Shown here: in pieces, positions 6,476-34,778 of the stretch
Layout: every line of letters begins with the position of its first letter
Numbering within the stretch: position 1 is the stretch's first letter
Position numbers and translations under genes: made by a program
Source of the DNA: Synechococcus sp. UW140
Lineage (GTDB): Bacteria; Cyanobacteriota; Cyanobacteriia; PCC-6307; Cyanobiaceae
Length of the DNA stretch: 64,000 nucleotides
Assembly (NCBI GenBank): GCA_943373065.1
Contig: CALSBA010000009.1
Coordinates: 19,194 to 83,193 of the forward strand
Direction of reading: 5' to 3'
The notes under the pieces: generated by a model
Databases searched by the model: none
The model's input: the letters and a program-made list of their open reading frames with translations, nothing else
What the model was told of the DNA's origin: nothing

Positions 6476-8060
<1,585 letters not shown>

Positions 8061-19804: not shown

Positions 19805-21370
19805 ATGGCCGCAGGCGATCTGGCCCTGGTGTTGCATGCCCACCTCCCTTACGTGCGATCGGGAGAACCGGGTTCGCTGGAGGAGGACTGGTACTTCCAG
19901 GCCTTGCAGGAATGCTATCTGCCCCTGCTGGCCGTGCTGGAGCGGGCCGCCGCCGACCCTGAGCAGCGCCCGAAACTCACCCTCGGCCTCTCCCCCACCC
20001 TGTTGTCGCTGCTGAGCGACACTGCCCTCAACGGACGCTTTCCGGCCTGGCTGGCCCTGCGCCGCACCCTGCTCGACCAAGCGGATCCGGAGCTGGAGCT
20101 GCCGGCGCGCCAGCTGAAGTCCACGCTCGCGGCCATCGAGGCCCAGTGGCGGCAGCTGGGGGGGAGCCTGCTGCCCGGGTTCCGGCGCCTGCAGGAGCAG
20201 GGGGTCCTCGATTTGATCACCTGCGGCGCCACCCACGGCTATCTGCCCCTGCTGCGGGATTCGCCCGAGGCGGTGCGGGCCCAGTTGCTCACCGCCGTGC
20301 GGGAGCATCAGCGGCTGCTCGGTGTGCGCCCCCTGGGGATCTGGCTGCCGGAGTGCGCCTATTACGAGGATCTCGATCGGCTCCTGGCTGAGTGCGGCTT
20401 GCGCTACTCCCTGCTCGACGGCCACGGCCTGCTCCATGGCCTGCCCCGACCGCGCTACGGGGTCTATGCGCCGATCTGCTCCACCGCCGGGGTGGCCTTC
20501 TTCGCCCGTGACAGCGAATCCACCCTGCCGGTGTGGAGTGCCAGCCAGGGCTATCCCGGCGACGGCGCCTACCGGGAGTTCCACCGCGACCTGGGCTGGG
20601 ACCTGCCGCAAGAAGCCCTGGAAGCCCTCGGCATCCGCGACCGGCGCCCCCTGGGGCTCAAGTTGCATCGGGTCAGCGCCCAGGGCTGTCCCCTGGAGCT
20701 GAAGCAGCCCTACGATCCGGAGCGGGCGGCGGACAAGGTGAAGGAGCACGCAGCGGCCTTTCTGCGGGGTCGCTCCGAGCAGGTGGCCCACCTGGCCGCC
20801 ACCATCGAGCCGCCACCGCTGCTGGTCGCGCCCTTCGATGCCGAACTGTTCGGCCACTGGTGGTTCGAAGGGCCCCAGTTCCTGGCCGAGCTGTTCCGCC
20901 AGGGCCCGGCGATGGATGTGGGCTTCACCCACCTGCGCGACGTGCTCAGCCAGAACCGGGCCCTGCAGGTCTGCCGGCCGGCCCCCTCCAGCTGGGGCCA
21001 GGGGGGCTACCACGACTACTGGCTGAATGACACCAACGCCTGGGTGGTGGCGGAATGGCAACGGGCGTCCCGCGCCATGGTGCAGCGCGTCAACCGGGGC
21101 GTGGGCAGCACCGAGCAGCGGGCCCTGCTCACCCAGGCGGGGCGCGAACTGCTGCTGGCCCAGAGCTCCGACTGGAGCTTCATCCTGCGGGCCGGCACCA
21201 CCACCGGCCTGGCCCGCGAACGGATCCGCCGCCACCTCGACCGCTTCTGGCGGCTGATCGATGCCCTCGAGCACGGCACCGACCTTCCCCGGGAGTGGCT
21301 GGTGGGGGTGGAACGGGAGGACGGGCTGTTCCCGGAACTGAACGCGGCCGACTGGGCGACGCGCGCCTAG
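19805..21370 (+). CDS. GH57 family glycoside hydrolase / branching enzyme (DUF1957)
   Basis: HAHLPYV, ATHGYLPL, WLPECAY (nucleophile), PFDAELFGHWWFEG (acid/base) and AQSSDW. Confidence 0.93.
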   Translation: MAAGDLALVLHAHLPYVRSGEPGSLEEDWYFQALQECYLPLLAVLERAAADPEQRPKLTLGLSPTLLSLLSDTALNGRFPAWLALRRTLLDQADPELELPARQLKSTLAAIEAQWRQLGGSLLPGFRRLQEQGVLDLITCGATHGYLPLLRDSPEAVRAQLLTAVREHQRLLGVRPLGIWLPECAYYEDLDRLLAECGLRYSLLDGHGLLHGLPRPRYGVYAPICSTAGVAFFARDSESTLPVWSASQGYPGDGAYREFHRDLGWDLPQEALEALGIRDRRPLGLKLHRVSAQGCPLELKQPYDPERAADKVKEHAAAFLRGRSEQVAHLAATIEPPPLLVAPFDAELFGHWWFEGPQFLAELFRQGPAMDVGFTHLRDVLSQNRALQVCRPAPSSWGQGGYHDYWLNDTNAWVVAEWQRASRAMVQRVNRGVGSTEQRALLTQAGRELLLAQSSDWSFILRAGTTTGLARERIRRHLDRFWRLIDALEHGTDLPREWLVGVEREDGLFPELNAADWATRA

Positions 21371-21376
21371 GAGCCC

Positions 21377-22126
21377 TCAGAGGATCTGATCCAGGAAACG
21401 CCGGGTGCGCTCGTGGCTGGGGTTGGTGAAGAACACCTCCGGTGCGGCCTCCTCCACCACTACGCCTTCGGCCATCAGCACCACCCGGTGGGCCACATGG
21501 CGGGCGAACTTCACCTCGTGCGTCACCACCACCATGGTGATGTCGTCGGCGGCGAGGTTCTGCATCACCTCCAGCACCTCCCGCACCATCTCCGGGTCGA
21601 GGGCGCTGGTGGGTTCATCGAACAGCAGGATGCGCGGTTCCATGCAGAGGGCCCGGGCGATCGCCACCCGTTGCTGCTGGCCCCCCGAGAGCTGGCCGGG
21701 ATACTTGCTCGCCTGTTCGGCGATGCCCACCCGCTCCAGCAGGGCCCAGGCCTGCTTCTCCACCTCGGCCTTGGGGCGCTTGCGCACCAGCACCGGGGCC
21801 AGGGTGAGGTTGTCGAGCACCGAGAGGTGGGGAAACAGGTTGAACTGCTGGAACACCATCCCCACCTCCCGGCGGACGGCGTCGATGTTGCGCAGGTCGT
21901 CGGAGAGCACGATGCCGTCGACGGTGATGCTGCCCTTCTGAAAATCCTCCAGCGCATTGAAGGTGCGGATGAAGGTGCTCTTGCCTGAGCCCGAGGGGCC
22001 CATGATCACCACCACCTCGCCGCGCCGCACCGTCAGGCTGGCGCCTCGCAGGGCCTGGAATCCGTTGGGATACCACTTCTCGACGGCCCGCGCCTCGATC
22101 ATCAGTTCGTTGCTGGGTTGGCTCAT
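21377..22126 (-). CDS. Polar amino acid ABC transporter ATP-binding subunit (AapP-like)
   Basis: [29 protein letters not shown] and VTHE. Confidence 0.95.
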
Positions 22127-22177
22127 GGGGCGGGAAGCGGGATCGGAGCGGGGGAGGTGGAAAAGGGGAACGCTGGC

Positions 22178-23389
22178 TCAGGTGGCGGAGGGCACCGCAT
22201 GGGGATCAAGGCGTCGCTCCAGGGCCCGGCTGCCCAGTCCGAGGGCGGCACAGCAACCCCAGAACAGCACCGCCAGGGTGAGGTACACCTCACCGTTCCG
22301 CCCCAGGAAAGCCGGGTTGGCCATCACGGTGCGGGCCGTGCCGAGCAGTTCCAGCAGTCCGATCAGCGACAGCAGGGTCGTGTCCTGCAGGAGTGAGATG
22401 AACTGGCCCACCATCGCCGGCAGGGCCACCCGCAGGGCCTGGGGCAGCACCACGTGCTGAAGCGCCTTCGGATAGGACAGCCCCAGGGAGCGGGCGGCCT
22501 CCAGCTGGCCCCGGGGCACGGCCGCCAGACCGGAGCGCACCGCCTCGGCCAGGTAGGCCGCGGCGAAGAAGGTGAGCACCCAGGCCGCCCGCCAGACCCG
22601 ATCGGGCGCCAGGCCGCCGGGCAACAGGAAACCGAGGATGTTCTGGCCGAGGAACAGCAGGGTGATCAGCGGCGCGCCGCGGATGAACTCGATGTAGAGG
22701 ACCGACCCCCAGCGCAGCAGGGGCAGCTCACTGCGGCGCCCCAGGGCCAGCAGCACCCCGATCGGGAAGCACAACAGGATCGCGAAGCTGGAGGCCAGCA
22801 GGGTGAGCATGAGTCCGCCCCATTCCGAAGGGGAGACGGTGACCAGGCCCAGGCCGCCGCTGATCAGCACCATGCCCGCCAGGTAGAGCACTGGCCACAC
22901 CAGGGCGGCCAGCCGCCGGCCGGCGGGGGAGAGGTTCGCCCCGAAACGGCCGGCCAGCCAGCGGCAGAGGACCAGCAGCAGCAGCAGCCCCCACCAGCGG
23001 GACTGGATGGCGAGGGTCAGGCCGAGGGCCGAGGGCACGGCCAGGGAGATCAGGGCCAGGAGCCCCACGGCCAGCCGGTCGTTGCGTGGCCAGAGCACGC
23101 CGGTGCGGTCGGGGCGGGGGTGGGCCCGCAGCAGACCCCAGGTGGCGCCACTGGCCGCCACCAGCAGGGCGGTGAGCAGCCAGAGACGCCACTGCTGCTC
23201 CACCGGGTAGCGGCCCACGGCGAACAGGGTGCTGTTCACCCGCACCACCGCCCACTGGGCCTGGGTGAGGGCCCAGCGCAGGAACCCGAAGGCCCCCAGG
23301 CTGAGAAGCGTGATCAGGGCCAGGCTCAGCGCCGCGTCGGCGGGGGTGGCGAACAGTTCGGCGCGCAGGCGCCGCAGGAGGGCGTTCAT
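22178..23389 (-). CDS. Amino acid ABC transporter permease (AapM/NatH-like)
   Basis: YIEFIRGAPLI, YLAEAVRSG, GQLEAARSLG, PQALR and QDTTL. Confidence 0.92.
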   Translation of the reverse strand: MNALLRRLRAELFATPADAALSLALITLLSLGAFGFLRWALTQAQWAVVRVNSTLFAVGRYPVEQQWRLWLLTALLVAASGATWGLLRAHPRPDRTGVLWPRNDRLAVGLLALISLAVPSALGLTLAIQSRWWGLLLLLVLCRWLAGRFGANLSPAGRRLAALVWPVLYLAGMVLISGGLGLVTVSPSEWGGLMLTLLASSFAILLCFPIGVLLALGRRSELPLLRWGSVLYIEFIRGAPLITLLFLGQNILGFLLPGGLAPDRVWRAAWVLTFFAAAYLAEAVRSGLAAVPRGQLEAARSLGLSYPKALQHVVLPQALRVALPAMVGQFISLLQDTTLLSLIGLLELLGTARTVMANPAFLGRNGEVYLTLAVLFWGCCAALGLGSRALERRLDPHAVPSAT

Positions 23390-23390
23390 C

Positions 23391-24428
23391 TCAGCGCTCC
23401 TGGATCTGGACCAGATGGTTGAGGCCGTTCATCAGGGCCGAAATCAGCAGGTCGAGGGTGAGGTAGGCCGCCAGCAGCACCAGGATCACTTCCACCGCCC
23501 GGCCGGTCTGGTTGAGGGTGGTTTCGGCCACGGAATAGAGGTCGGTGTAGCCCACCGCCACCGCGAGGGAGGAGTTCTTGGCCAGGGAGATGTACTGGGT
23601 GTTGAGCCCCGGCACGATCACCCGCAGCGACTGGGGCAGCACGATGCGGCGCAGGGTCGCGAACCAGCTCAGTCCCAGGGAGGAGGCCGCCTCCCACTGT
23701 CCCTTGGGAACGGCGGCGATGCCGCCGCGCACCACTTCGGCGATGAAGGCCCCCGAATACACGATCAGGCCGGTGAGCAGGGCGCCGAATTCGACACTCA
23801 GGCGCACCGGGGCCTGCCAGACCCCGTTGACGAGCGTGGGTCCCATCCAGCGCAGCCCCTCGCCGAACCCGGCGATGTACAGGCCCGATTTGGCCAGCAC
23901 CACCCCGGGCAGCTGGATCGCCGCCACGCCGTTCGGCAGGGTGAGGAACACCACGAAATACCAGAACACCAGCTGCAGCAACAGGGGGATGTTGCGCACC
24001 ACCTCCACATAGACCCGCGCCAGCCGTCGCAGCAGGCCGTTATGGCTGAAGGAGGCCATCCCCACCAGGGTGCCCAGCAGGGTGGCCCCCACCAGGCCCA
24101 CCAGCACCGCCCGGATCGTGTTGACCAGGCCGGCCGCCAGGGCGCGCCAGTAGGGCAGTTGGGCATTGAACGGAATCACCGATTCCGAGATGTCGAAGCC
24201 GGCGGGCTGCTGCAGCCAGCGCCAGCTCAGCAGCAGCCCGGCCGCCGTCAGGTTGCGGATCAGATTGCCCAGCAGGAAGGCGATCAGCAGCAGCACCAAC
24301 AGACCCACCACGGCCTGTACCAGCCAGGGAACGACGCGGCGGTCGCGCCACCAGGGCGGCTTGGGGGCAGGCAGTTTCGCGGCAGACAGTGGCGATGGGG
24401 TCGGGTCGGCGGGGGGGACCGGCGCCAT
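23391..24428 (-). CDS. Amino acid ABC transporter permease (AapQ/NatG-like)
   Basis: AGFDISE, GLVNT, RNIPLLLQL, AEVVRGG, GQWEAA and KNSSLA. ATG at 24428 overlaps the upstream stop (TGATG). Confidence 0.92.
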   Translation of the reverse strand: MAPVPPADPTPSPLSAAKLPAPKPPWWRDRRVVPWLVQAVVGLLVLLLIAFLLGNLIRNLTAAGLLLSWRWLQQPAGFDISESVIPFNAQLPYWRALAAGLVNTIRAVLVGLVGATLLGTLVGMASFSHNGLLRRLARVYVEVVRNIPLLLQLVFWYFVVFLTLPNGVAAIQLPGVVLAKSGLYIAGFGEGLRWMGPTLVNGVWQAPVRLSVEFGALLTGLIVYSGAFIAEVVRGGIAAVPKGQWEAASSLGLSWFATLRRIVLPQSLRVIVPGLNTQYISLAKNSSLAVAVGYTDLYSVAETTLNQTGRAVEVILVLLAAYLTLDLLISALMNGLNHLVQIQER

Positions 24429-25489
24429 CAACGGAAGGGCGGGGAGTAGATCAGGCCGCCATCCTTCCACTGGCGGTTGAGGCCCCGGTCGAGCTTGAGC
24501 GCGGATGCGGGGCCCACGTTGCGGTCGAAGATCTCGCCGTAGTTGCCCACGGCCTTCACCGCCTTGACCACGAAGTCGGGCGGAAGGCCCAGCTGCTTGC
24601 CGAAGTCACCCTCCACCCCCAGGAAGCGGCGCAGGTCGGCCTGGTTGGTGTTGGCCTTGGCCTCGGCCAGCTTGGCGTCCACATTGGCCTGGGTGATGCC
24701 GCTCTCCTCGGCCTGCATCAGACCGAACACGATCCAGCGCACCGCATCGGCCCAGGCCGGGTCGCCGTTGGTGGTGGCGGGGGTCAGCGGCTCCTTGCTC
24801 ATCACCACCGGCAGCAGGGTGTGGGCGTCCGGTTTGGGGAAGCTGGTGCGCTTGCCCGCCAGCTGGGAGCGGTCGCTGGTCACGGCCACGCAGCGGTCGC
24901 CGAGGTAGGCGGCGAAGGTCTGGTCGCTGGTCTGGAACTTCAGCGGCGTGTAGGGGATGTTCTGCTCCCGCATCCGGTCGGCCAGGTTGAGCTCGGTGGT
25001 GGTGCCGCTCTCGACGCAGATCGGCTTGCCGGCGAGGCCCTTGAGGTCCTTGATGCCGCTGGCCACGGGCACCAGCACCCCCTGGCCGTCATAGAAGGTG
25101 GTGGGGGCGAAGCTGAGGCCGTTGCCGCCGGCCGCATCACGGCTCAGGGTCATGGTGGTGTTGCGCGACAGCAGGTCCACCTCGCCACTGGCCAGGGCAG
25201 CGAAGCGCTCGCTGGAGTTCAGGTCGCGGTACTCCACCTTCTCGGGATCCCCCAGCACCGCAGCGGCCACGGCCTTGCAGACGTCAACGTCGAGGCCCAG
25301 GTACTTGCCGTCGGGGCCCACGAAGCTGAAGCCGGGCAGCTTGCCTTCCACACCGCAGATCAGCTTGCCCCGCCCCGTGATCGTGGAGAGCTTCTGGCTC
25401 TGCACACCGCCATCATCCCCAGCACAACCGGCGAGCAGGCCAGCGGCCAGCAGGGAGGCCCCGAGGGAGAGGGTCCGGTTCCAGAGCAT
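24428..25489 (-). CDS. Amino acid ABC transporter substrate-binding protein (AapJ/NatF-like), canonical copy
   Basis: Lipoprotein-like signal (LLAGC), GKLPGFS, SRNTTMTLSRD, TSDRSQL, SKEPL and VGNYGEIF. Confidence 0.93.
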   Translation of the reverse strand: MLWNRTLSLGASLLAAGLLAGCAGDDGGVQSQKLSTITGRGKLICGVEGKLPGFSFVGPDGKYLGLDVDVCKAVAAAVLGDPEKVEYRDLNSSERFAALASGEVDLLSRNTTMTLSRDAAGGNGLSFAPTTFYDGQGVLVPVASGIKDLKGLAGKPICVESGTTTELNLADRMREQNIPYTPLKFQTSDQTFAAYLGDRCVAVTSDRSQLAGKRTSFPKPDAHTLLPVVMSKEPLTPATTNGDPAWADAVRWIVFGLMQAEESGITQANVDAKLAEAKANTNQADLRRFLGVEGDFGKQLGLPPDFVVKAVKAVGNYGEIFDRNVGPASALKLDRGLNRQWKDGGLIYSPPFR

Positions 25490-25557
25490 GCTTGTTTCCT
25501 TGAGTGGCCGCATTGTTGCAGGTGCGGGCCGGCGCAGGTAGGCCGCCCGGAACCTCC

Positions 25558-26640
25558 TCAGCGGAAGGGCGGGGCGATGTGCAGGCCGCCGCGGCTCCAG
25601 AGGTGGTTAAGGCCCCGCTCCAGGCCCAGGGGGGTGGCAGGGCCGAGGTGGCGCGCGAACAACTCGCCGTAGTTGCCCACCGCCTTGACCACCTGCACCG
25701 TGAAATCGGCGGGCAGGCCCAGCTGGCGGCCGAAATCCCCCTCGATCCCCAGGAAGCGACGTTGCTCCGCCTGGCTGGTGTCCTTCTGGGCGGCGGCCCG
25801 CCGGGCCTCCACATTGGCCTGGGTGAGGCCGCTATCCTCCGCCTGGACCAGGGTGTGGCTCACCCAGCGCACCGCATCGGCCCAGGCCGGATCCGCCTGG
25901 ATCGTCACCTTGGCGCTGGGCTCCTTGCTGAGGAGATCGGGGAGCAGCCCGTGGGCGGCCGGATTCTTGAAGCCACTGCGCTTGGCCGCCAGCAGGGAGC
26001 TGTCGCTGGTGATGGCGGCGCAGCGACCCTGCTCGTAGGCCGGGTAGGCCTGCTCGCCCGACTGGAAGCGCAGCGGCTGGTAGGCGACCCCCAGTTCCCG
26101 CATGCGATCGGCCAGGTTGAGCTCGGTGTTGGTGCCGCTCTCGACGCAGATGGGCTTGCCGGCCAGGTCTTGCAGGCGGCGGATGCCACTGGCCACCGGC
26201 ACCATCAGCCCCTGGCCGTCATAGAAGAAAACCGGGCCGAAGCTGAGGGCGTTGCCGCCGGGGGCGTCGCGGCTGAGCGTGTGGGTGGAGCTGATCGAGA
26301 GCAGATCCACCTCACCGCTGCTCAGGGCCACGAAACGCTCGCCGGCCGTCACCGGCCGGAACTCCACCTTGGTGGGATCCCCGAGCACGGCGGCGGCCAC
26401 GGCCCGGCAGAAGTCGGCGTCGATGCCCACGAAAGCTCCGCTGGGGCCCACCGTGCTGAACCCCGGCACCGCCCCATCCACGGCGCAGACCAGCCGTCCC
26501 CGTTCGCGGATCTTGGCCATGGTGGGGCTGCCGGGGGCCTCGTTGCCGGCGGCGCAGCCCATCAGGCCGCCGAGGGCCGCCATCAGGAGTGCCAGCGTGC
26601 CGATGGCCGGCCCTGACGCACCCCGCGTCGCCCGGCTCAT
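25558..26640 (-). CDS. Amino acid ABC transporter substrate-binding protein, divergent paralog
   Basis: Same scaffold (GFS, CVESGT.TE, SKEP, VGNYGELF) with a lipobox-like LMGC. ATG overlaps the cupS stop. Confidence 0.9.
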   Translation of the reverse strand: MSRATRGASGPAIGTLALLMAALGGLMGCAAGNEAPGSPTMAKIRERGRLVCAVDGAVPGFSTVGPSGAFVGIDADFCRAVAAAVLGDPTKVEFRPVTAGERFVALSSGEVDLLSISSTHTLSRDAPGGNALSFGPVFFYDGQGLMVPVASGIRRLQDLAGKPICVESGTNTELNLADRMRELGVAYQPLRFQSGEQAYPAYEQGRCAAITSDSSLLAAKRSGFKNPAAHGLLPDLLSKEPSAKVTIQADPAWADAVRWVSHTLVQAEDSGLTQANVEARRAAAQKDTSQAEQRRFLGIEGDFGRQLGLPADFTVQVVKAVGNYGELFARHLGPATPLGLERGLNHLWSRGGLHIAPPFR

Positions 26641-27038
26641 CCCGGCAGGATCACCCGGTCGATCACGTGCACGATGCCGTTGTCGCAGACGATGTCGGCA
26701 GAAACCACGGTGGCGTTCTTGACCTCGAAGGGCTCAGCCCGACGGATCGCCACCGGCGCCCCCTCCAGGCTCTCCCATTCCGGCTGCCCAATCAGTTGCT
26801 CCCGCCGGTAGGCCCCGGAGAGCACATGGAATTTGAGGATCCGGGCCAGCTGGGGCACGTTGTCCACCAGGGTCTGGACCGTGCCGGGGGGCAGGGCGGC
26901 GAAGGCGTCGTCGACGGGGGCGAAGACGGTGAAGGGGCCGGGGCTTTCCAGGGCGCCGGTGAGCCCGGCCACCTCGACGGCGGTGAGCAGGGTGGCGAAG
27001 CAGCCGGCTCCCTTGGCGGTTTCGATGATGTTGGCCAT
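26637..27038 (-). CDS. cupS: Fasciclin-domain small subunit of the NDH-1(3) CO2 uptake complex
   Basis: FAS1 motifs FTVFAP.DDAF and NGIVHVID; directly downstream of cupA. Confidence 0.88.
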   Translation of the reverse strand: MANIIETAKGAGCFATLLTAVEVAGLTGALESPGPFTVFAPVDDAFAALPPGTVQTLVDNVPQLARILKFHVLSGAYRREQLIGQPEWESLEGAPVAIRRAEPFEVKNATVVSADIVCDNGIVHVIDRVILPG

Positions 27039-27048
27039 GGGGAATCTC

Positions 27049-28359
27049 CTAGCGGTAGTCCTGGGTCTGGATCTGGGGCAGACGGGCCTCGGGCCGCAGG
27101 AAGCGATCCATCTGGGCCTCGAAGAACTTCCGGTTGGCCATCAGATGCACCGGGTCGGTGTCATCGAGGGGATAGAGCAGGGCACAGCGCAGGGCCTGGA
27201 TCACCGCCGAGGTGACGTTGTACATGGAGCGCTGGAAGGTGATCCCCAGTTGGATGAGCTTGTCCTCATCGCCACGCTTGTGGTGCTTGTAGAGCTCCTC
27301 CAGATAGGGCGGCAGGAAATGCAGCATGTCCTGCATCAGCAGGGTGGGAGGGATGCCGGCCGAGCCCACGGGGAACACGTCGGCATAGAGGATGCCGTAG
27401 TGGAAATCGGCCTGATCGGCAGGCACCTGATAGGCCTGGGCGTTGTAGCTCTTGGTGCCGCGAAATGGCGCCGTGCGATAGAAGACCGCCTCCACGTACG
27501 GGAGAGCCGCTTCATAGAGCCAGGTGAAGCCTTCCGACTTGGGGATGATCTCGAGGCACTCCCCGCCGATGTACACGTGGTGGTAGATGGGCCGCCCCGC
27601 CACGGCGAAGATGCCGTTCACCAGGAAATCCATGGCGGCGGGCACGCCGGAGAAGCCGCCCTCGTCGTAGATGTCGCTCATCTCGAAGAACACCGGCGCC
27701 ATCACCTCCCAGAACAGGCCGAGGTTGGCGTAGTAGCTCATCTTCTTCACCTGCTCCATGAACATCTCAGGGAACAGGCGATAGAGGCCGAGCATCAGCG
27801 GATTGCCGCGGAAGTAGGCCTTGATGGCGCGATCGGCGTTGGCCCGGTAAGCGTCACTGGCGAGATAGTCGTAGAAGCGGCCGCCCATGCCCTGATGCCA
27901 GAGCATGGCTTCCATGCACGCCTCGGCGAACTCCATGTTGATCCGGTCGTGCCAGAGGTGATGGAGCAGCTTCGACATCTTGCCGGTTTCGCCCTTCTCC
28001 ATGAACTCCAGCAGTTCAGGATGGGCCTTTTCACCGCCGCGCCAGATCCGCAGCTTCGACTGATCGCCGGCGTAGGAATTGGGGAGATCGAGGTACTCCT
28101 GGCTGGGAAAGTATTTGAAGGCCGGCAGGGGATCGAGGAACACCTGCTCGGCGATGTAGAGCAGGTCGCGCCAGTAGAAGTCCATCGGCACGGCATAGGC
28201 CTTGTAGATGCCGATGATCTGCATCAGGTTCTCCGGCGTGTCCGGCAGCATCGAGCCGCCGGCCTCCAGCCGGTGGATCACATCGGCATAGCGATGGGTG
28301 GAGGGCGGGATCAGGGGAGCGGTGACGGGCTCGGGGGCCGTGGCGGTGGGGGGCGTCAT
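27049..28359 (-). CDS. cupA: CO2 hydration protein CupA/ChpY (high-affinity type)
   Basis: 436 aa, which fits CupA rather than the shorter CupB. Motifs LEAGGSMLPDTPENL, YAVPMDFY, EFAEAC...WH, YRTAPFRGTKSYNAQ. Followed by cupS. Confidence 0.92.
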   Translation of the reverse strand: MTPPTATAPEPVTAPLIPPSTHRYADVIHRLEAGGSMLPDTPENLMQIIGIYKAYAVPMDFYWRDLLYIAEQVFLDPLPAFKYFPSQEYLDLPNSYAGDQSKLRIWRGGEKAHPELLEFMEKGETGKMSKLLHHLWHDRINMEFAEACMEAMLWHQGMGGRFYDYLASDAYRANADRAIKAYFRGNPLMLGLYRLFPEMFMEQVKKMSYYANLGLFWEVMAPVFFEMSDIYDEGGFSGVPAAMDFLVNGIFAVAGRPIYHHVYIGGECLEIIPKSEGFTWLYEAALPYVEAVFYRTAPFRGTKSYNAQAYQVPADQADFHYGILYADVFPVGSAGIPPTLLMQDMLHFLPPYLEELYKHHKRGDEDKLIQLGITFQRSMYNVTSAVIQALRCALLYPLDDTDPVHLMANRKFFEAQMDRFLRPEARLPQIQTQDYR

Positions 28360-29912
28360 GACGTGCGCAGCTCCGAGGCGGAAGGGAGGGTGACGGCGAC
28401 CAGGGGGGAGCCGGAGGCGGCGAGGGTGAGGGGCTGGGCGGCATCCCGGCTGAGGAACGGCTGGGTGCGCAGGGCCAGACCCGTGGATTCGGTCTCACTC
28501 CAGCCCGTGAGGGCGGTAGGCCAGAGGCCCGCCGCGATCACCAGAACGGTGAGGGCCATGGCCGGCGCCCGCTCGCTCCAGCAGGTGGAGCTCCATTTGG
28601 CGCGCTCGTTGTCGAGGCGGCCGAAGCCCACCCTGTTGAACAGGCGGATGGCGTAGACGGCGGTGAAGCCCGAGGCGATCAGGCTCACCAGGGTGGCGCG
28701 GGGGAAGGTGGTCCAGCTGCCTTCGAACACCAGCAGCTCGGCAGGGAAGCCCGCCAGGCCGGGGATGCCGGCGGCGGCCATCATGGCCAGCAGCAGCATG
28801 CCCATGGTGAACGGCAGTCCCCGCAGGGGGTTCATCAGGCCCGAGAGCTCAGGGATGGACGTGGTGCCGGTCTTGCGTTCAATCAGGCCGACGCAGGCGA
28901 ACAGCAGAGCCACGATCATGCCGTGGGCGAGCATCTGGGCCACCGCCCCCTGCAGACTGAGGGGGGTGGCGGCTGAGAGCCCCAGCACCAGCAGGCCCAT
29001 GTGGCCGAGGGAGCTGTAGGCCATCAGGCGGCGGATGTCGCTCTGGGCGATGGCGTTGAGCGCCCCGTACACCGCGCTGATGGCGCCGGCAGCGGCGATC
29101 CAGGGCGACCAGGCGGCCCAGGTGTCTGGAAGGAAGCCCACGCCGAAGCGCAGCAGGCCGTAGGCGCCCAGCTTGGAGACGGAGCCCGCCAGCAGCATCA
29201 CCACCGGGGTTGGGGCCTGGCCGTAGGTGAAGGGCTGCCAGCCGTGGAGGGGAAAGACGGGAAGCTTCAGGCCGAAGGAGAGCAGCAGCAGGGCCAGGAT
29301 CCAGCGTTGGGCCGTGGGGGAGAACTGGGCCTGGCGAAGATCCTCGAAAGCGAAGAGCGGACCGGCGGGATTGAACCAGGCGAAGGCCAGCACGGCCGCC
29401 AGCAGGGCCAGGCCGGAGACGGCGCTGTAGAGCAGGAAACGCACCGCGGCACCGGCCCGTTTCTCGCCCCCCCAGACCGCCACCAGCAGGGTGATCGGGA
29501 TCAGCACCAGCTCGAAGGCCAGGAGGAACAGCAGGGCGTTGCGAGCCAGCAAGCCCGCGACGACACCCAGGTTGGTGGCCAGCATCAGCGAGAAGAACAG
29601 CCGCGGCCGGGACTGGTCGGCCGCTGCCGAGAGGATCGATAGAGAGGTGATCAGCGCGGTGAGCAGCACCAGCGGCAGCGAGAGGCCATCCAGACCGAGA
29701 TCGAGCCCGAGCCCGAGTTTCGGCAGCCAGGAGAGCTGCAGGTCGGCGGGGGGGTGCTGCCAGCAGAGCAGGCCCACAAGGAGCTGAAGGGCGCCGAACA
29801 GGGCCGCGATGCCGCGGACCCGAACGGAAGGAACGGTTGCCGGCAGCAGGGGCAGCAGCAGGGTGCCGGCCAGGGGTGCGGCCAGGAGAAGCAGGAGCGA
29901 GGACGATCCCAT
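28356..29912 (-). CDS. ndhD3: NADH dehydrogenase subunit 4, NdhD3 type
   Basis: Proton-translocating antiporter-like subunit (FELVLIP, LKLPVFPLHGW, SKLGAYG, YSSLGHMG) between ndhF3 and cupA. Confidence 0.88.
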   Translation of the reverse strand: MGSSSLLLLLAAPLAGTLLLPLLPATVPSVRVRGIAALFGALQLLVGLLCWQHPPADLQLSWLPKLGLGLDLGLDGLSLPLVLLTALITSLSILSAAADQSRPRLFFSLMLATNLGVVAGLLARNALLFLLAFELVLIPITLLVAVWGGEKRAGAAVRFLLYSAVSGLALLAAVLAFAWFNPAGPLFAFEDLRQAQFSPTAQRWILALLLLSFGLKLPVFPLHGWQPFTYGQAPTPVVMLLAGSVSKLGAYGLLRFGVGFLPDTWAAWSPWIAAAGAISAVYGALNAIAQSDIRRLMAYSSLGHMGLLVLGLSAATPLSLQGAVAQMLAHGMIVALLFACVGLIERKTGTTSIPELSGLMNPLRGLPFTMGMLLLAMMAAAGIPGLAGFPAELLVFEGSWTTFPRATLVSLIASGFTAVYAIRLFNRVGFGRLDNERAKWSSTCWSERAPAMALTVLVIAAGLWPTALTGWSETESTGLALRTQPFLSRDAAQPLTLAASGSPLVAVTLPSASELRTS

Positions 29913-31828
29913 CAGCGGAACGGGCGAACGAGTTCGGACGGAACGGAAGGGGCGGAGGCCAGCAGCCAGGCGGCCATCAGCAGCACCCCGAGAAGGAGGG
30001 TGAGGGCATAGGCCTGGGTGCGGCCGGAGGTGGTGAAGCTGAGGCGGCGGGCACCCTCAAGGGCGGCACTGCCGGAGGCACCACTGAAGCCATCGATCAG
30101 CCGGTCATCCGACCAGGCACTGAGCCGGGCCAGGGCCACCACCAGCCACACCACGGTGCGGTGGTAGAAGCGCTCGGTCTGCATGTCGTGGGCCAGCCAG
30201 TCCTGCAGGCCGCCGAGGGCTGCGGGCAGGTGGGCCAGGGGGTGGGGCCGCAGGTAGAACACCGCCGAGAGGCCGCCGCCCACGAGGGTGGAGATCAGCA
30301 GGGGCATCGCCAGCGGACCCCAGCCCGGAAGGGGGGAAAGGGCGAAGACGCCGTTGATCACCATCAGCTGCGGCAGGTGCAGCACCAGACCCATGAGCAC
30401 GAAGGTGGGCAGTGCCATCAGCCACAGCACCTCGGCGGAGCGGGTGGTGAACACCGACGGACGCCCGCCCCAGATCAGCCCGAACACCCGGATCAGGCCG
30501 GCGCTGATCAGGGCATTGGTGAACAGCACCAGGGAACCGAGCAGCACCGGATGGGAGCTCTCGGCCGTGAGCACCATGAGCTCGCGCAGGGCGGCGAAGC
30601 CACCGAACGGTGGCAAGGCCATCAGGCCGGCGGCGCCTGTGAGGAAGGCCAGGCCCATCAGCGGACGCTTGCTCCACAGGCCCCCGAGCTGGGTGAGGTC
30701 CTGGGTGACGTTGGTGATCACGATGGCGCCGATCACCATCAACAGCAGCGCCATCGGCAGGGGATACACCAGCATCAGGTGATCGGCCACGCTGATGCCG
30801 CCCAGACCCACCGCCACGAACAGCAGGCCGAGCCAGCTGCTCACCAGGAAGGAGAGGGCGCGCTTCACATCGATCTGGGCGAGGGCAATCAGGGAGGCCA
30901 CCAGCGCAGTGGTTCCGCCCACGATCACGAGCACGGTCTGCACCAGGGCGCTCAGTTCGATCAGGGGCTCGAGCCGCAGCAGGACCCAGGCGCCGCCCAC
31001 CACCACCACCGAGTTACGGAGCACGGTGGAGGGCAAGGGACTCTCCATGGCCTCATCGAGCCACAGGTGCAGGGGGATCTGGGCGCACTTGCCCATCGGC
31101 CCGGCGATCAAGGCCAGCAGGATCAACGGCAGAAACTGGGGAAGGGGGTTGCCGTTATTGATCTGATCGGCGGCCCAGGCCTGCAGCCCGTGGAAGTTCC
31201 AGGTGCCGGTGATCGGCAGCAGGGCAATCAGGCCCGCCAGCAGGATCAGGTCGCCGATCCGCTTGGTGAGGAACGCATCGCGTGCGCCCTTGACCACCAG
31301 GGGCTGGTTGTACCAGGTGCCCACAATCAGGTAGGTACCCAGGGTGAGCAGCTCGAGGATGACGTAGCTGAAGAACAGCGAGTCCGTGAGCACCAGGGCG
31401 CACAGACCGGCCTCGAAGAAGCTCAGGGACCCGAAGAAGCGGGGCCAGCCCCAGTCCATCTCCAGATAGCCGATGGCGTAGATCTGCACCAGCACATGCA
31501 GGCCGGTGATCACCGTCATCGCGATCAGGGCCGGCTCGGTGATCAGGCCATCGAAGCCCACCTTGAGCCCGGCGGTCTCCAGCCAGGTCCAGCCGAAGGT
31601 GAGGGGCTGGTAGAGGGCAGCGGCACCTGCGGCGGAATTGGAATGGAGCGCCATCAGGGCGGCGGCGCTGTGGACGAAGGCCACGCTCACCAGGGTGAGG
31701 TTGAGATAGCCGCAGGGGCGTGGACCCGTGCGCGAGATCAGCCCCGGAGACCAAAGCAGCGACAGCAGGGACGCCACCAGGGGGTAGAGCGGAACCAGCC
31801 AGGCCGTCTGGGCGAAGAACAGGGTCAT
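29912..31828 (-). CDS. ndhF3: NADH dehydrogenase subunit 5, NdhF3 type
   Basis: SRTGPRPCGY, GYLEMDWGW.RFF, GARDAFLTKRIGD and GKCAQIPLHLWLDEAME; head of the cupA/cupS operon. Confidence 0.9.
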   Translation of the reverse strand: MTLFFAQTAWLVPLYPLVASLLSLLWSPGLISRTGPRPCGYLNLTLVSVAFVHSAAALMALHSNSAAGAAALYQPLTFGWTWLETAGLKVGFDGLITEPALIAMTVITGLHVLVQIYAIGYLEMDWGWPRFFGSLSFFEAGLCALVLTDSLFFSYVILELLTLGTYLIVGTWYNQPLVVKGARDAFLTKRIGDLILLAGLIALLPITGTWNFHGLQAWAADQINNGNPLPQFLPLILLALIAGPMGKCAQIPLHLWLDEAMESPLPSTVLRNSVVVVGGAWVLLRLEPLIELSALVQTVLVIVGGTTALVASLIALAQIDVKRALSFLVSSWLGLLFVAVGLGGISVADHLMLVYPLPMALLLMVIGAIVITNVTQDLTQLGGLWSKRPLMGLAFLTGAAGLMALPPFGGFAALRELMVLTAESSHPVLLGSLVLFTNALISAGLIRVFGLIWGGRPSVFTTRSAEVLWLMALPTFVLMGLVLHLPQLMVINGVFALSPLPGWGPLAMPLLISTLVGGGLSAVFYLRPHPLAHLPAALGGLQDWLAHDMQTERFYHRTVVWLVVALARLSAWSDDRLIDGFSGASGSAALEGARRLSFTTSGRTQAYALTLLLGVLLMAAWLLASAPSVPSELVRPFR

Positions 31829-32003
31829 GGCGGGAGAACGGTCGGGACCGGGGACGGCCCGCGTGGTGGCGAACACTAAGATCCCGGGCGCCGAGCGGTG
31901 GCTTTTCCGTGAAGGAAATTCCTATGGGATCTCCAAGCTGTCGTTATCAGTCAGCGGCCATCCCCTTGGCCCTGCCCACCGGGCCGGAACGGCTGGACAC
32001 GCA

Positions 32004-34778
<2,775 letters not shown>

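Follow-up and report, generated by a model that had tools for sequence, protein, structure and literature searches.

A stop/start overlap joins an extra amino-acid-binding protein gene to the ndhF3-ndhD3-cupA-cupS operon in a clade of freshwater picocyanobacteria, suggesting a possible tie between carbon limitation and the uptake of organic nutrients

In Synechocystis, the CO2-uptake genes ndhF3-ndhD3-cupA-cupS are followed by a fifth gene, cupAR (sll1736), which is co-transcribed after cupS, with cupA and cupS (PMC11456788); the premise of an earlier, sequence-only reading of the locus described here, namely that the operon normally ends at cupS, is therefore too strong. Among amino-acid importers, N-II of Anabaena sp. 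PCC 7120 (NatF-NatG-NatH-BgtA) and AapJQMP/BztABCD (TC 3.A.1.3) are encoded in the order substrate-binding protein (SBP), permease, permease, ATPase, and the substrates of N-II, which has this gene order, are acidic and neutral polar amino acids (PMC4500139). Systems of both types lie side by side in a 64,000-nt stretch of Synechococcus sp. UW140 (contig CALSBA010000009.1, positions 19,194 to 83,193, hereafter the window), where the four CO2-uptake genes, in the same order as in Synechocystis, precede two tandem SBP genes (SBP1 and SBP2), two permease genes and the gene for an ATP-binding cassette (ABC) ATPase. The host is an alpha-cyanobacterium (Cyanobium), unlike Synechocystis, and the fifth gene encodes an exported amino-acid-binding lipoprotein, whereas Synechocystis CupAR is an unrelated 127-aa two-helix membrane protein. 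The transporter genes follow the N-II/Aap/Bzt order, their binding proteins are large (~340 aa) as in those importers, and an Anabaena locus (L149) is matched by all four transporter proteins in the same order at 41-69% identity; in contrast to these systems, two binding proteins stand in tandem here and the first is physically coupled to the CO2-uptake operon. In Salmonella, the receptors HisJ and LAO share HisQMP. As in that case, two paralogous receptors are encoded beside one permease set, which SBP1 and SBP2 may share, and their differences concentrate in a loop taken as ligand-contacting; unlike that case, one receptor would be under the control of another operon via a stop/start overlap.

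We favour, with moderate confidence, a model in which the nine genes form two adjacent transcription units joined by an inserted paralogue, SBP1, that is linked to low inorganic carbon (Ci) and serves different substrates. Unit 1 would consist of ndhF3-ndhD3-cupA-cupS-SBP1, that is, the NDH-1MS (NDH-1_3) high-affinity CO2-uptake operon with its promoter region upstream of ndhF3 and with SBP1 as its fifth gene in the Cyanobium gracile-type clade; unit 2 would consist of SBP2-permease-permease-ATPase, an N-II/Aap-type polar amino-acid importer with a promoter of its own. Because the SBP1 start overlaps the cupS stop, SBP1 would be transcribed with cupS, and it would probably be translated by termination-reinitiation coupling. 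Since no terminator is evident, unit 2 may also receive read-through from unit 1.

At 26637-26640, the stop codon of cupS and the start codon of SBP1 share the bases ATGA (the sequence there reads ccgggATGAgccggg), and the in-frame overlap is kept in 25 of the 26 evaluable genomes of the clade with SBP1 of at least 88% identity, with cupS ending in GGA-TGA. The overlap remains unchanged while the synonymous divergence (dS) of these genes amounts to ~0.2-0.45. Moreover, the SBP1 signal peptide that follows varies in sequence and in length, with ~17 to 32 residues before the lipobox Cys; the overlapping ATG is always its first codon and is the sole start that yields a lipoprotein signal peptide, and where this peptide is shortest (as in L087) no alternative codon gives a workable one. 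Because the signal peptide varies yet always begins there, the SBP1 start at the overlap is real and held in place. From cupA to SBP2, a scan of the window found neither a terminator-like site nor a sigma-70 consensus site, and cupS contains no match to TGNNANAAT, the pattern of the promoter-like motif found before SBP2. Across the whole region, the sigma-70 consensus scan likewise returned nothing, as expected at ~69% G+C, and the four terminator-like hits all fall within coding sequence, in a number equal to the shuffled expectation. SBP1 thus lies on the same strand as the ndhF3 operon, behind a conserved junction that leaves no room for a promoter or a terminator, and it appears to be structurally part of the CO2-uptake operon, presumably co-transcribed with it; among the transporter genes, this can be said firmly of SBP1 only. 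The structural part of the sequence-only reading, that the first binding protein is joined to the cupS unit, is upheld by the conserved ATGA, by the absence of promoter- or terminator-like sites at the junction and by the purifying selection described below. The features concerned, in positions of the window, are as follows.

29912-31828, minus strand: ndhF3, 638 aa (NCBIfam TIGR01960 ndhF3_CO2 and PRK07390; Pfam Proton_antipo_M and Proton_antipo_N)
28356-29912, minus strand: ndhD3, 518 aa (Pfam PF00361; TIGR01972)
27049-28359, minus strand: cupA/chpY, 436 aa (Pfam ChpXY, E 6e-156; TIGR01964)
26637-27038, minus strand: cupS, 133 aa, fasciclin fold (Pfam Fasciclin, E 9e-34; PDB 2MXA and 6TJV)
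26637-26640, minus strand: ATGA junction of the cupS stop (TGA) and the SBP1 start (ATG), from the raw sequence
25558-26640, minus strand: SBP1, paralogue of the AapJ/NatF-type amino-acid-binding lipoproteins, 360 aa (Pfam SBP_bac_3; lipobox LMGC)
25490-25557, minus strand: spacer of 68 bp between SBP1 and SBP2, from the raw sequence
25512-25520, minus strand: extended -10-like motif TGCAACAAT, 31 nt before the SBP2 ATG
24428-25489, minus strand: SBP2, canonical AapJ/NatF-type binding lipoprotein, 353 aa (Pfam, NCBIfam; lipobox LLAGC)
23391-24428, minus strand: permease 1, AapQ/NatG-like (Pfam BPD_transp_1; NCBIfam HEQRo_perm_3TM)
22178-23389, minus strand: permease 2, AapM/NatH-like, 403 aa (Pfam BPD_transp_1; NCBIfam HEQRo_perm_3TM)
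21377-22126, minus strand: ABC ATPase, AapP/BgtA/GlnQ-like, 249 aa (Pfam ABC_tran, E 4e-39)
31829-32003, minus strand: intergenic region upstream of ndhF3, likely the regulated promoter (sequence and alignment)

The open reading frame (ORF) list, the translations and the raw sequence agree that all nine genes are co-oriented on the minus strand, and they bear out the junctions reported earlier: ndhF3 and ndhD3 meet in TGATG with one base in common, ndhD3 and cupA overlap as ATGA, cupA and cupS are 10 bp apart, and, beyond the cupS-SBP1 overlap and the 68-bp spacer, the distances are -1 (a TGATG overlap) between SBP2 and permease 1, 1 bp between the permeases and 51 bp between permease 2 and the ATPase. 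NdhF3 aligns from residue 1 and over its full length above the cut-offs of the CO2-uptake subfamily (TIGR01960, 672 bits against 589; PRK07390, 719 against 676). NdhD3 scores 414 bits with TIGR01972 (cut-off 264), and its D3 label rests on its position between ndhF3 and cupA. CupA reaches 735 bits with TIGR01964 (cut-off 294). Because a second, lower-scoring chpXY gene, presumably chpX, lies on another contig of the genome, the gene in the window is assigned, by context and score rather than from a ChpX/ChpY tree, to the ChpY/CupA of the ndhF3/D3 system; ChpY is present in the freshwater subclusters 5.2/5.3 (PMC9477826). The 133-aa fasciclin protein is, on homology, a true CupS, since it aligns end to end (residues 1-133 on 1-133) with 2MXA, the "NDH-1 complex sensory subunit CupS" (E 7e-42), and likewise over its full length with chain Q of the NDH-1MS cryo-EM structure 6TJV (E 6e-42); its exact sequence has no match in public assemblies. 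As for the transporter, SBP_bac_3, two BPD_transp_1 and ABC_tran are all matched within one cluster, as in the PAAT family, and TIGR01726 (HEQRo_perm_3TM) is above its cut-off in both permeases. All NCBIfam scores for equivalogs or subfamilies of characterised transporters are below cut-off (GlnQ, the best match of the ATPase, 297 against 379 bits; TIGR01096, 143 against 256), and the safe assignment is to the PAAT family only. The nearest solved relative of both binding proteins is the amino-acid-binding protein 4Z9N (PDB, E 5e-84), and the genome has no further gene of this kind besides SBP1 and SBP2.

SBP1 and SBP2 share 63% identity. In a tree of 131 family members, SBP1 forms a separate long-stemmed clade whose sister is made up of "extra" tandem binding proteins of other freshwater picocyanobacteria, both being nested within the picocyanobacterial SBP2 radiation, and this placement makes SBP1 an old duplicate rather than a recent copy. 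One could suppose that it is a decaying pseudogene copy of SBP2, since it evolves faster (88-95% identity across the clade for SBP1 vs 97-100% for SBP2), has lost family-invariant residues and carries an in-frame stop in one strain (L116). However, of ~27 genomes only one lacks an uninterrupted ORF with a lipoprotein signal peptide, and the ratio of non-synonymous to synonymous divergence (dN/dS) is 0.16, to be compared with 0.10 for cupS, 0.13 for cupA, 0.18 for permease 2 and 0.066 for SBP2. Moreover, the clade shares one fixed set of substitutions rather than scattered ones, and the two positions taken as anchors of alpha-amino acids, Arg in TLSRD and Asp in TSD, are kept. We therefore reject decay as hardly credible; the dN/dS indicates that SBP1 is a functional gene under purifying selection.

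The fixed changes of SBP1 affect 11 columns that do not vary elsewhere in the family, the criterion being conservation of at least 90% among 57 SBP2 sequences and an identical residue in at least 70% of 32 sequences from outgroups (Anabaena, Prochlorococcus, Chloroflexota and Bacillus); SBP1 thus differs from N-II/Aap-type relatives in all these groups. In SBP2 numbering they include R109I, N110S, T111S, T164N, L235S, P237K and G46A. Specifically, the ligand loop LLSISSTHTLSRD is remodelled from S-R-N-T-T to S-I-S-S-T and G-T-T-T becomes G-T-N-T, while the Arg after T-S-D is replaced by Ser in a column that falls below the conservation filter in the outgroups; SBP2 retains the canonical S-R-N-T-T...R-D, G-T-T-T and T-S-D-R pattern, which SBP1 lacks. 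The unlinked extra SBP paralogues keep the canonical residues, so the remodelled pocket is found only in the cupS-linked paralogue. Taking the contacts of LAO/HisJ to be Ser69-Ser72, Arg77, Thr121-Gln122 and Asp161, we assume that the changed positions lie in ligand-contacting loops, and that the alpha-carboxylate and alpha-amino groups are held by the residues retained in SBP1, Arg in T-L-S-R-D and Asp in T-S-D. SBP1 would then likely still bind an amino-acid-like ligand, with an altered side-chain preference because two arginines are lost.

Being exported, SBP1 cannot work together with the CupA/CupS module, which is cytoplasmic. It is a lone receptor, and since the genome has no second permease set of this type, it would most plausibly dock on the neighbouring permease, to which it would most likely bring different, less acidic or more neutral amino-acid-like substrates, and its amount would follow the expression of the CO2-uptake operon. 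Co-transcription, low-Ci induction, docking and the substrate shift are inferred. A bolder version makes SBP1 a carbon-stress receptor, made only when the CO2-uptake operon is induced and re-aiming a constitutive permease to another substrate class; we offer it tentatively and consider it doubtful, with neutral or photorespiration-related amino acids (glycine, serine, alanine) or a small organic acid or amine as candidate substrates.

The second unit appears to begin in the 68-bp gap. The pattern TGNNANAAT has two matches in the whole window, against 6.5 expected from shuffles, and one of them is TGCAACAAT, in front of SBP2. Of 52 distinct regions upstream of SBP2, 50 have a motif of this kind at -30 to -34 from the start codon, in variants such as TGTGACAAT, TGTAAAAAT, TGGCACAAT and TGGCAAACT, among others, and is usually followed by GCGSCCAC. 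It is shaped like an extended -10 element (TGn + nAnAAT), the signal by which picocyanobacterial promoters are mainly recognised. Because the set covers transporters that are inverted or not linked to cupS, the transporter has its own start signal wherever it is placed, and TGCAACAAT is a probable promoter of the transporter operon; the earlier suggestion that the gap could hold an internal promoter is strongly supported by this conserved motif at a fixed distance from the SBP2 start. Of the AAGGA Shine-Dalgarno-like site reported in the same gap, the presence in the window is confirmed, together with a few relatives (AAGGAAGC in L083/L012, L096 and L109), but most relatives lack it. The gap length presumes the MLWNRT start of SBP2 (25489), which relatives favour over the ATG given by the ORF finder (25513): the latter falls within the conserved CAACAATG, and relatives whose motif reads GACAATC lack it. 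That ATG was rejected as a start and belongs to the promoter-like motif. An NtcA box (GTA-N8-TAC), sought by eye upstream of the -10-like motif, was also rejected, as the clade has only GTT-N10-TAC and relatives do not keep it.

The alternative of a single operon of nine genes, induced by low Ci and lacking a functional internal promoter, which would place the whole transporter in the CO2-limitation regulon, draws on the shared orientation of the genes, on overlaps or gaps of at most 68 bp, on the lack of terminator-like sites in the intergenic regions from ndhF3 to the ATPase and of significant spacer hairpins, and on the cupS-SBP2 spacers of single-SBP relatives, which go down to 44 nt (L018). 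We nevertheless judge it unlikely, since a rare, position-fixed -10-like motif precedes SBP2 in 50 of 52 regions, including stand-alone and inverted transporters. The 68-bp gap itself contains no terminator-like site and folds no more stably than shuffled sequence (z -0.6), the cupS-SBP spacer hairpins of ten relatives are no stabler than shuffled sequence either, and an intrinsic terminator in these spacers can be neither claimed nor excluded from folding. With no such excess of stability in the spacers, transcription of the ndhF3 unit could everywhere continue into the transporter. The two-unit model is thus retained, with the transporter probably under its own promoter and only SBP1 firmly tied to the CO2-uptake operon.

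The distribution of the arrangement was followed in 80 best cupA loci and 79 best SBP1 loci, with one genome per prokaryote species, onto which the nine proteins of the window and the flanking genes were mapped. The adjacency, for which the sequence-only reading had called for a synteny check, is not unique to the strain: SBP1 orthologues of 88-95% identity are present in ~27 species-level Cyanobium genomes, labelled Cyanobium, Synechococcus or Aphanothece; strains of Cyanobium gracile (L097 and L101) are among the carriers of the arrangement. In this group (at least 88% identity) SBP1 always lies behind cupS and, where the contig is long enough, the order is P-ATPase-ndhF3-ndhD3-cupA-cupS-SBP1-SBP2-permease-permease-ATPase. 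In a sister group, SBP1 of 76-79% identity is likewise downstream of cupS, with a 45-nt spacer in L106. In three other genomes of this sister group, from the FGCU clade of Cyanobium (L107, 489-1961; L108, 5442-6917; L110, 5453-6934), a gene for a Cache-type sensor GGDEF diguanylate cyclase stands between cupS and SBP1, and its stop overlaps the SBP1 start as ATGA in L107 and L108; in L110, the GGDEF and SBP1 reading frames are fused in frame. This gene was considered as the ancestral state and rejected, because its restriction to three genomes marks it as a derived insertion. At L011, an unrelated reverse-strand CHASE-PAS-GGDEF gene lies between cupS and an extra SBP. More distant Cyanobium/Vulcanococcus genomes have a single SBP2 44-240 nt after cupS in ten loci, while in others the transporter is 2.5-9 kb off, inverted or elsewhere, and among the fetched loci of beta-cyanobacteria no linkage between transporter and cupS was found. 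At L126 (7001-10236) and L127 (6992-10220), three tandem binding-protein genes precede the same permease-ATPase set, and multi-receptor versions of the transporter are therefore common in freshwater picocyanobacteria.

Several points weigh against the two-unit, Ci-linked reading. An unrelated P-type ATPase gene, taken as a control, occupies the same position upstream of ndhF3 in most of the same genomes; the adjacency of transporter and cupS is therefore largely inherited order and not by itself an argument for a functional tie, and the physiological tie to CO2 limitation, a reasonable hypothesis from the arrangement of the genes, is weakened accordingly. At the junction, in the exception, L111/L015, cupS ends in GGC-TGA and the overlap is replaced by a spacer of 140 nt that includes TGGCAAGCT, a degenerate form of the promoter-like motif, and in L116 (Cyanobium sp. 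Aljojuca 7A6, ~6950-8000) the otherwise conserved SBP1 contains a single in-frame stop (GVA*QPL), which may be either a strain-specific loss or a sequencing error. The pocket residues were mapped by analogy with LAO/HisJ contacts and not on a structure, and the -10 reading of TGCAACAAT follows the consensus alone, so that the motif could instead be a regulator site or an element of the 5' untranslated region. Lastly, low-Ci induction of ndhF3 in these alpha-cyanobacteria is extrapolated from the Synechocystis/Synechococcus models, and no paper was found that links cupS or ndhF3 to an amino-acid transporter.

Some of these points would equally suit a neutral by-product of inherited gene order and deletion, in which SBP1 is a second receptor that lost its spacer and owes its expression to incidental read-through or to a cryptic promoter in cupS, with no adaptive link to Ci. 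Along with the co-conserved P-type ATPase, such an origin would account for tandem extra SBPs being common in related picocyanobacteria (up to three, in L126 and L127) and mostly not coupled to cupS, and for spacer variants of the kind expected from deletions (45 nt in L106, 140 nt in L111). It fits poorly with an overlap kept across ~25 species despite dS of ~0.2-0.45 and a freely changing signal peptide, with a pocket remodelled only in the cupS-linked paralogue and with the lack of a promoter-like motif in cupS; we regard it as rather improbable, though deserving serious weight, and continue to prefer two units joined by a Ci-linked SBP1.

Upstream of ndhF3, the 175-nt region that follows the P-type ATPase gene (which ends at 32004) contains near-invariant blocks in an alignment of 17 genomes: GACTGATAACGA (31941-31952), CCCATAGG (31921-31928), TTTCCTT and GGGATCTTAGTGTTCGCCACCACGCGGGCC, the last of which holds a TAnnnT-type hexamer, TAGTGT (31873-31878). 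This region presumably harbours regulator sites and the promoter of unit 1, and the blocks are candidate CcmR/NdhR-type operator and promoter elements of alpha-cyanobacteria.

Other observations concern the same loci. A segment of ~3.6 kb (~28100-31700), covering ndhF3, ndhD3 and the 5' part of cupA, occurs as two deeply divergent alleles within the clade, with nucleotide identity to the window of 64-81% in some species and mostly 95-98% in others (no bin below 87%), while the two flanks mostly have ~85-95% in all species (compare L083, L089 and L104 with L084, L095 and L109); the corresponding protein identities are 76% vs 98% for ndhF3 and 65% vs 98% for ndhD3. The pattern suggests that alleles were replaced through recombination and that one of them has recently spread between species. 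At the other end of the locus, the ATPase gene and a convergent plus-strand ORF (19805-21370) end only 6 bp apart (21370-21377), which leaves no room for a terminator of either gene, and no Rfam family was found in 15000-40000. Seven metagenome-assembled genome records (L012, L017, L024, L054, L092, L105 and L118) that carry picocyanobacterial carbon-concentrating-mechanism and transporter genes are titled Bordetella parapertussis, Chitinophaga pinensis, Tabrizicola, Rhizobium and others, and are evidently mislabelled.

Freshwater picocyanobacteria of the Cyanobium type dominate many lakes (PMC9477826), and how they combine autotrophy with the uptake of organic compounds is poorly known. If the expression of SBP1 is incidental, the locus would still be a clean example of duplication and deletion capturing a gene into an adjoining operon. 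The overlap-joined extra binding protein suggests, however, a possible tie of organic-nutrient uptake to carbon limitation: if the two-unit model is correct, SBP1 would be a concrete connection between inorganic-carbon limitation and the acquisition of organic carbon or nitrogen, and the substrate range of a transporter would be set by placing one receptor under another regulon. Should SBP1 also prove to be a carbon-stress receptor, mixotrophic or salvage uptake would be switched on within the carbon-concentrating regulon of freshwater picocyanobacteria.

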